64,000 nt of DNA from Escherichia coli (GTDB lineage: Bacteria > Pseudomonadota > Gammaproteobacteria > Enterobacterales > Enterobacteriaceae): assembly GCF_024298765.1 (NCBI RefSeq), contig NZ_CP101210.1; one strand, 5' to 3'. The notes under the pieces were generated by a model. The model worked only from the letters and a program-made list of their open reading frames with translations, was not told the DNA's origin and did no database searches. Shown in pieces: positions 39,369 through 40,730 of this stretch (position 1 is the stretch's first letter; each line of letters begins with the position of its first letter). The translations under genes were made by a program, and so were the position numbers.

Positions 39369-40730
39369 GTGGAAAAAGAAAATATCACCCTCGATCCGCG
39401 TTCTTCATTTACTCCATCTTCGTCGGCAGATATTCCCGTGCCACCAGATGGATTAGTTCAACGCAGTACCCGAATTAAACGCATTCAAACCACCGCCATG
39501 TTGTTATTATTTTTTGCGGCGGTAATCAATTATCTCGACCGCAGTTCGCTGTCGGTAGCAAATTTAACGATTCGTGAAGAATTGGGATTAAGTGCCACCG
39601 AAATCGGCGCTTTGCTCTCCGTGTTTTCACTCGCTTACGGGATTGCGCAACTTCCTTGCGGCCCACTATTGGATCGTAAAGGCCCGCGCCTGATGCTGGG
39701 ACTGGGGATGTTCTTCTGGTCACTGTTCCAGGCCATGTCTGGCATGGTTCACAGCTTTACGCAGTTCGTGTTGGTGCGTATCGGTATGGGGATTGGTGAA
39801 GCGCCGATGAACCCATGTGGCGTAAAAGTCATTAACGACTGGTTCAACATCAAAGAGCGCGGACGCCCGATGGGTTTCTTCAACGCAGCTTCTACCATTG
39901 GCGTTGCCGTTAGCCCACCGATTCTGGCGGCGATGATGCTGGTGATGGGCTGGCGCGGGATGTTTATTACTATTGGTGTACTGGGGATTTTTCTCGCCAT
40001 CGGCTGGTATATGCTCTATCGCAACCGCGAGCACGTAGAACTGACTGCCGTTGAACAAGCTTATCTCAATGCAGGTAGCGTCAATGCCCGCCGAGATCCG
40101 CTCAGTTTTGCCGAATGGCGCAGCTTGTTCCGTAACCGCACAATGTGGGGAATGATGCTCGGATTCAGTGGCATCAACTACACTGCGTGGCTGTATCTGG
40201 CCTGGCTTCCTGGTTACCTGCAAACAGCCTATAACCTGGATTTAAAAAGCACAGGGTTGATGGCGGCTATCCCTTTCCTGTTTGGGGCTGCCGGGATGCT
40301 GGTCAACGGTTACGTTACTGACTGACTGGTCAAAGGGGGAATGGCTCCGATTAAAAGCCGTAAGATCTGCATTATTGCCGGGATGTTCTGTTCTGCCGCC
40401 TTTACGCTGGTCGTACCGCAAGCGACAACATCCATGACGGCGGTTCTGCTGATTGGCATGGCACTGTTCTGTATTCACTTTGCCGGAACATCCTGCTGGG
40501 GCTTGATCCACGTCGCAGTTGCTTCTCGCATGACGGCGTCGGTGGGCAGTATCCAGAACTTTGCCAGCTTCATCTGCGCCTCTTTTGCGCCGATCATTAC
40601 TGGTTTTATTGTTGATACCACCCACTCATTCCGTCTGGCACTAATCATCTGCGGTTGCGTCACCGCGGCGGGTGCACTGGCGTACATCTTCCTGGTTCGT
40701 CAGCCGATCAACGACCCGCGTAAAGATTAA
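39369..40730 (+). pseudogene. lgoT: L-galactonate MFS transporter LgoT interrupted by in-frame TGA at 40323-40325
   Basis: ORFs 39369..40325 and 40341..40730 are in one frame; 318+1+5+129 = 453 codons equals the intact K-12 length as recalled. Confidence 0.7.

Follow-up and report, generated by a model that had tools for sequence, protein, structure and literature searches.

The window analyzed here, a contiguous stretch of 64,000 nucleotides of Escherichia coli DNA, carries on its plus strand, at positions 39369-40730, a stretch of 1362 bp that corresponds base for base to the galactonate transporter gene lgoT of E. coli K-12 MG1655 (b4356, 1362 bp). Since the match to a known gene extends over every base, a chance origin of the reading frames described below is not at issue. 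The surroundings of the gene are arranged as in K-12, with lgoD encoded on the minus strand, lgoR and lgoT on the plus strand and tsr on the minus strand from 40779, so that tsr converges on lgoT and lgoT forms the last gene in its transcription unit. The lgoRT operon, with lgoT in the last position, has been described earlier and is reported to respond to D-glucuronate as inducer (PMC5934670). Because lgoT ends this operon and is followed by a terminator-like hairpin, a polar effect of a lesion within the gene is not expected. The features of the locus are the following:

37079-38101, minus strand: lgoD, L-galactonate oxidoreductase, intact and divergently oriented (open reading frame list, K-12 synteny).
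38240-39154, plus strand: lgoR, GntR-family regulator, intact, located 5' of lgoT in the lgoRT operon (open reading frame list, K-12 synteny).
39358-39362, plus strand: native lgoT ribosome-binding site AGGAG, 5' of the GTG start (duplex -6.9 kcal/mol, spacing 5 nt).
39369-40730, plus strand: lgoT pseudogene, orthologous to the K-12 galactonate:H+ symporter gene b4356 and interrupted by a single opal codon (98.4% identity to K-12).
39369-40322, plus strand: 318-codon N-terminal product with TM1-TM8, expected to be the sole abundant translation product (open reading frame list, TIGR00893 match).
40317-40328, plus strand: perfect (ACTG)x3 repeat made by the G to A substitution, ancestral sequence ACTGACTGGCTG; strain 181.1 is without 4 bp exactly here.
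40323-40325, plus strand: premature TGA at codon 319, with a derived A at 40325 in place of the ancestral G; the next base is C, which gives a UGA-C context (comparison with K-12 and E04).
40333-40339, plus strand: Shine-Dalgarno (SD)-like AAGGGGG directly 5' of the ATG at 40341, ancestral and also present in K-12 (duplex with the 16S rRNA 3' end).
40341-40730, plus strand: remnant 129-codon open reading frame starting at Met325, with TM9-TM12, in frame with the N-terminal part (open reading frame list, TIGR00893 match).
40738-40767, plus strand: terminator-like hairpin and T-run just past the lgoT stop codon.

The nucleotide alignment of the gene with K-12 lgoT contains no insertion or deletion and 22 substitutions, which corresponds to the identity of 98.4% and comprises 17 synonymous changes, four missense changes, two of which fall within codon 348, and one nonsense change from G to A. 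Apart from the stop, the protein differs from K-12 LgoT by the replacements I8L, N129S and I348V, all of them conservative, and the only disruptive difference is thus the G to A change at 40325, by which codon 319 reads TGA instead of TGG (Trp). The open reading frame at 39369-40325 starts with GTG and comprises 318 codons up to the TGA at 40323-40325, after which the frame runs on as LVKGG-MAPIK until the TAA at 40728-40730. Translated in one frame, positions 39369-40730 yield 453 codons with codon 319 as the single internal stop (318 + 1 + 5 + 129). The first-pass annotation of this DNA, which had been made from the letters alone, had assigned two open reading frames to an lgoT interrupted in frame by this TGA, had noted that their summed length equals that of the intact 453-codon transporter and had deduced a change of a Trp codon from TGG to TGA; the gapless K-12 alignment and the one-frame translation bear out each of these points. 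It had also proposed a comparison with K-12, and as codon 319 is TGG in that strain, a stop shared with K-12 can be dismissed. Both the sequence and the lgoD/lgoR-lgoT/tsr synteny therefore identify an lgoT orthologue, in which an unbroken open reading frame of approximately 453 codons for all 12 transmembrane helices is no longer present, TM9-12 being located beyond the TGA.

The wider neighborhood departs from K-12 beyond tsr, where an island of approximately 5.9 kb between tsr and btsT (window ~42500-48400) is absent from K-12. This island encodes a MurR/RpiR regulator, a sodium:solute symporter, a RidA protein, an N-acyl-D-amino-acid deacylase and an amino-acid deaminase. In addition, near-identical relatives annotate two other gene remnants in regions corresponding to window ~52321-52422 and ~62803-63746, namely a truncated BrnT toxin fragment beside an intact brnA antitoxin and a frameshifted Rpn-family recombination-promoting nuclease.

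The consequences of the stop for the transporter were assessed by profile searches, by hydropathy and by comparison with homologues. The NCBIfam profile TIGR00893 (D-galactonate transporter subfamily) spans 399 positions and has a curated cut-off of 395 bits; the N-terminal fragment matches its positions 2-276 with 220 bits and the C-terminal fragment matches the adjoining part of the same profile, positions 288-399, with 34 bits, so that neither of the two polypeptides exceeds the cut-off for an ACS-family MFS transporter. In the hydropathy profile the stop directly follows a hydrophobic segment (294-317), and four further hydrophobic segments, 330-354, 351-380, 392-418 and 417-445, lie past it. 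On account of this profile we place the stop where the cytoplasmic loop connecting TM8 with TM9 is predicted to begin, and helices 9-12 would therefore be lost. K-12 LgoT (YjjL, b4356, UniProt P39398), an ACS-family MFS galactonate:H+ symporter, shares length, GTG start and synteny with the gene in the window but carries TGG at codon 319 and is an intact protein of 453 amino acids. Among the structures of the PDB copy searched, the nearest homologue is the D-galactonate:H+ symporter DgoT (PDB 6E9N/6E9O; E = 2e-52, residues 41-444), which has the 12-TM fold in common with LgoT although it is a paralogue with opposite stereospecificity. The LgoT segment GYVTD-W-LVKGG aligns with GWVAD-L-LVRKG of DgoT (6E9N), and as DgoT has Leu at position 319, the Trp residue itself is not conserved. 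In the crystal structure of LgoT at 2.2 A, reported in a 2026 preprint, TM7-12 form the C-terminal bundle and a periplasmic gate contact involves F401 (bioRxiv 10.64898/2026.05.20.726482). A product lacking TM9-12 should accordingly be read, from its predicted topology, as inactive in transport. The same work showed that a K-12 lgoT deletion strain does not grow on L-galactonate, and its authors concluded that no transporter other than LgoT is required (bioRxiv 10.64898/2026.05.20.726482). Because growth on L-galactonate depends in K-12 on this one transporter, L-galactonate uptake is likely to be lost in the lineage that carries the TGA, by analogy with the K-12 deletion phenotype. A search of the literature for a link between ST117 and L-galactonate, or between yjjL and a pseudogene, returned nothing relevant.

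The allele is widespread in public genomes. More than 30 complete E. coli genomes match the full-length gene of the window at 100% identity. With a probe of 57 bases around the stop (40297-40353), for which an exact match was required and whose stretch is carried by 4,470 complete genomes, the version with TGA was found in 49 of these lgoT-bearing E. coli genomes, the remaining 98.9% differing from the probe by at least one base. The 49 carriers originate from chickens, turkeys, pigs, a dog, humans, river water and wastewater and were sequenced in many laboratories. Over all 1362 bp, 45 of the 49 copies are identical, and the other four have one extra SNP each. The exact 318-aa and 129-aa fragments are each encoded on at least 1,000 contigs of public assemblies, and GenBank deposits list both as separate proteins (AUZ14098.1/AUZ14099.1, BAX13852.1/BAX13851.1). 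In 13P477T, 20Ec-P-124, 2009C-3133 and D10 the RefSeq pipeline PGAP, in turn, classes lgoT as a pseudogene and gives "internal stop" as the note; all four entries are described as MFS transporter, internal stop. Those of 13P477T (BWI89_RS15495), 20Ec-P-124 (CPZ02_RS25170) and 2009C-3133 (MJ49_RS08025) are 100% identical to the window over 1362 bp, while that of D10 (RG43_RS21820) contains the TGA and is one base off (V30A). The nonsense pseudogene is thus already flagged in RefSeq annotation, and nothing of substance distinguishes the window strain from these carriers, the differences being private SNPs outside lgoT. Two of these private SNPs, at 35075 and 35701, are missense changes (D143A and D352N) in opgB (34648-36939, plus strand), and a third is located at 47103 just 5' of the amino-acid deaminase gene; the opgB pair occurs in 0 of 5,426 complete E. 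coli genomes, the best match being 99.7%. Positions 1-19774 and 60074-64000 of the window are 100% identical to strain D10.

The direction of the change can be read from the closest alleles. When TGG is restored in the allele of the window, the resulting sequence has a 100% match in one genome, E04. The next closest alleles, those of MDR_56, Jnd12, MS1679 and STE15, all have TGG and, in addition, A343V. Over 41 kb of flanking sequence the window differs from the carriers of the TGA by 2-4 SNPs and from the genomes with TGG and A343V by 9-15 SNPs. The flanks of E04 are 1-3% divergent from the window, whereas positions 38782-41975, a block of ~3.2 kb that runs from the 3' part of lgoR through lgoT into tsr, are identical except for the G at 40325. 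From this pattern E04 is interpreted as a recombination mosaic that preserves the lgoT allele as it was before the mutation. At its tsr-btsT junction E04 carries a further cluster of ~10 kb that resembles hydroxyproline catabolism genes. The intact orthologues of K-12, E04, MDR_56, Jnd12, MS1679 and STE15 all have the sense codon TGG, and with E04 and K-12 as outgroups the G at 40325 comes out as ancestral and the A as derived; positions 37820 and 44719 are in the derived state along with it. The lesion is reproduced in independent assemblies and inherited together with flanking markers. A pseudo-reversion among the close alleles outside the list obtained with the 57-mer was considered and ruled out, as all of these simply have TGG, with or without A343V.

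ST117 is an important poultry-associated, extra-intestinal pathogenic E. coli lineage. The TGA carrier 20Ec-P-124 belongs to ST117 O24:H4 (PMC5430464), and MDR_56, which has TGG, has been used as an ST117 reference (PMC6085623). As ST117 includes both a carrier of TGA and a genome with TGG, the TGA marks one sub-clade among ST117 relatives. It is derived and recent, given that the sister ST117 genomes and the mosaic E04 hold TGG on an otherwise identical allele, and since nearly all copies (45 of 49) are still identical, the pseudogene is young. The near-absence of further decay fits a young pseudogene and fits continued constraint equally well.

A few further lesions were found in the carriers and their sister. 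Besides V30A in D10, strain 2009C-3133, which has the TGA allele, contains an IS1A element between lgoR and lgoT, inserted at the 3' end of lgoR at window ~39110-39115 (18095-19723 of its own locus); its lgoR is annotated with 903 bp compared with 915 bp elsewhere, and a SNP is present at 39364, 5 nt 5' of the lgoT start. Strain 181.1, the closest sister strain and isolated from a turkey, shares 37820C with the TGA clade and is without 44719A, which places it as a sister of that clade. It has lost 4 bp at window 40317-40320, which turns (ACTG)3 into (ACTG)2 and can be described equivalently as a change from CTGGCTGG to CTGG. The deletion frameshifts lgoT, and PGAP annotates it in 181.1 as two ordinary coding sequences (355 aa and 98 aa) and not as a pseudogene. 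Judged by its sequence and by the flanking markers, the product of this deletion could have arisen by slippage from the TGA allele or from the TGG allele alike. These additional events are few. With regard to a phase-variable repeat switch in lgoT, the window has only three ACTG units (40317-40328) and one relative has two, and no other ACTG length variants exist among the best 60 alleles examined; such a switch would need a long repeat tract of varying length, which the gene does not have.

Several explanations for the internal TGA have to be weighed against a true mutation. The first-pass annotation had left it undecided between a pseudogene and a sequencing error, and of these two the pseudogene has stood. 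In the case of a base-calling or assembly error the source strain would truly have TGG and an intact lgoT; base-calling errors typically show up as single-base differences, and the window has three other private SNPs absent from the close relatives examined and is identical to no complete genome. However, the same A has been read in 49 complete genomes sequenced independently of one another, at least 1,000 contigs carry it, it is annotated as an internal stop by PGAP, and it co-segregates with the lineage markers at 37820 and 44719, so that an error has become exceedingly improbable. Even further removed is programmed recoding, in which the UGA would encode selenocysteine or constitute a conserved site of regulated read-through. 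The position of an in-frame UGA inside an otherwise intact open reading frame would suit such a mechanism, yet the predicted fold of the 63 nt past the UGA is no more stable than that of shuffled controls (z = -0.25) and no Rfam match, SECIS families included, was obtained at E <= 1 in 39000-41000. TGG is the codon in K-12 and in all close relatives sequenced outside the sub-lineage, and 98.9% of the lgoT-bearing complete genomes are without the exact sequence of the stop region; as the relatives outside the sub-lineage carry TGG, the TGA is a recent mutation rather than a conserved recoding signal. Selenocysteine recoding can be ruled out by the lack of a SECIS together with the missing conservation of the stop, and programmed read-through by a stop conserved across orthologues is likewise not what was found, the exact stop-region sequence being present in 49 of 4,470 genomes.

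An allele with residual function deserves a closer look, although we consider it improbable too. Either the Trp-tRNA would read through the UGA-C, or translation would re-initiate at the ATG at 40341 so that TM1-8 and TM9-12 assemble, and some uptake would be kept. The UGA-C context is reportedly, according to work of Poole, Brown and Tate from 1995, the weakest terminator context in E. coli, but basal read-through is said to amount normally to a few percent or less. Near-cognate Trp-tRNA reads UGA at low frequency in competition with RF2 (PMC10570021), and as the ancestral residue is Trp, read-through at this site would restore the native residue and may yield some full-length LgoT. The in-frame ATG at 40341 begins 16 nt past the stop and is preceded by the SD-like AAGGGGG with -10.7 kcal/mol against the 16S rRNA 3' end; this stretch, however, abuts the ATG with an unfavorable spacing of 0-1 nt, and being ancestral, with no difference from K-12, it is not an adaptation. 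The break falls in a cytoplasmic loop and not inside a helix, and the lactose permease LacY, likewise of the MFS, is reported from the work of Bibi and Kaback in 1990 and of Zen and colleagues in 1994 to have been expressed as two contiguous fragments separated within a hydrophilic loop, and in this form, according to the former study, it can be active. Those split constructs were engineered with proper expression signals and with no residues deleted, whereas in the lgoT of the window the second fragment would depend on a ribosome-binding site with poor spacing, and six loop residues, WLVKGG, would be missing next to the conserved Asp in the loop motif GxxxD. The lack of other decay of lgoT in 45 of 49 genomes speaks for a retained function, and the added lesions (IS1A in 2009C-3133, V30A in D10 and the 4-bp frameshift in 181.1) suggest no strong constraint. 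If the allele were indeed not null, this would explain the undecayed gene and would represent a naturally occurring MFS transporter, leaky or split, that a successful lineage has kept; we give only a slim chance to low-level L-galactonate uptake being kept in the ST117 relatives by read-through or re-initiation.

The stop in lgoT is thus a genuine, vertically inherited nonsense mutation in a sub-lineage related to ST117, and the gene very probably an ordinary young pseudogene, whose carriers are predicted neither to transport L-galactonate nor to grow on it. A single G to A transition at 40325 occurred in an ancestor of the sub-lineage and converted codon 319 from TGG to TGA. Translation from the native GTG then stops after 318 residues, at the start of the cytoplasmic TM8-TM9 loop of a 12-helix ACS-family MFS symporter. 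The missing TM9-TM12 would account for two-thirds of the C-terminal bundle, which provides half of the substrate cavity and the periplasmic gate, and transport should fail. L-galactonate uptake is predicted to be lost in the lineage, while lgoR and lgoD are retained intact.

A match to lgoT is absent altogether from 907 of 5,426 complete E. coli genomes, and a pangenome study described lgoT as a gene that is often gained and lost and that never co-occurs with siaP/siaT/nhaK (bioRxiv 10.1101/2023.03.20.533463); lgoT is dispensable in E. coli. The finding is correct but ordinary and its significance small: the allele in the window is a further instance of the repeated loss of lgoT within E. coli and involves no new mechanism. 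The TGA allele nevertheless provides a clean lineage marker for one sub-clade related to ST117, and the phenotype predicted for its carriers, a failure to grow on L-galactonate although lgoD and lgoR are intact, would be usable in typing or in metabolic models.
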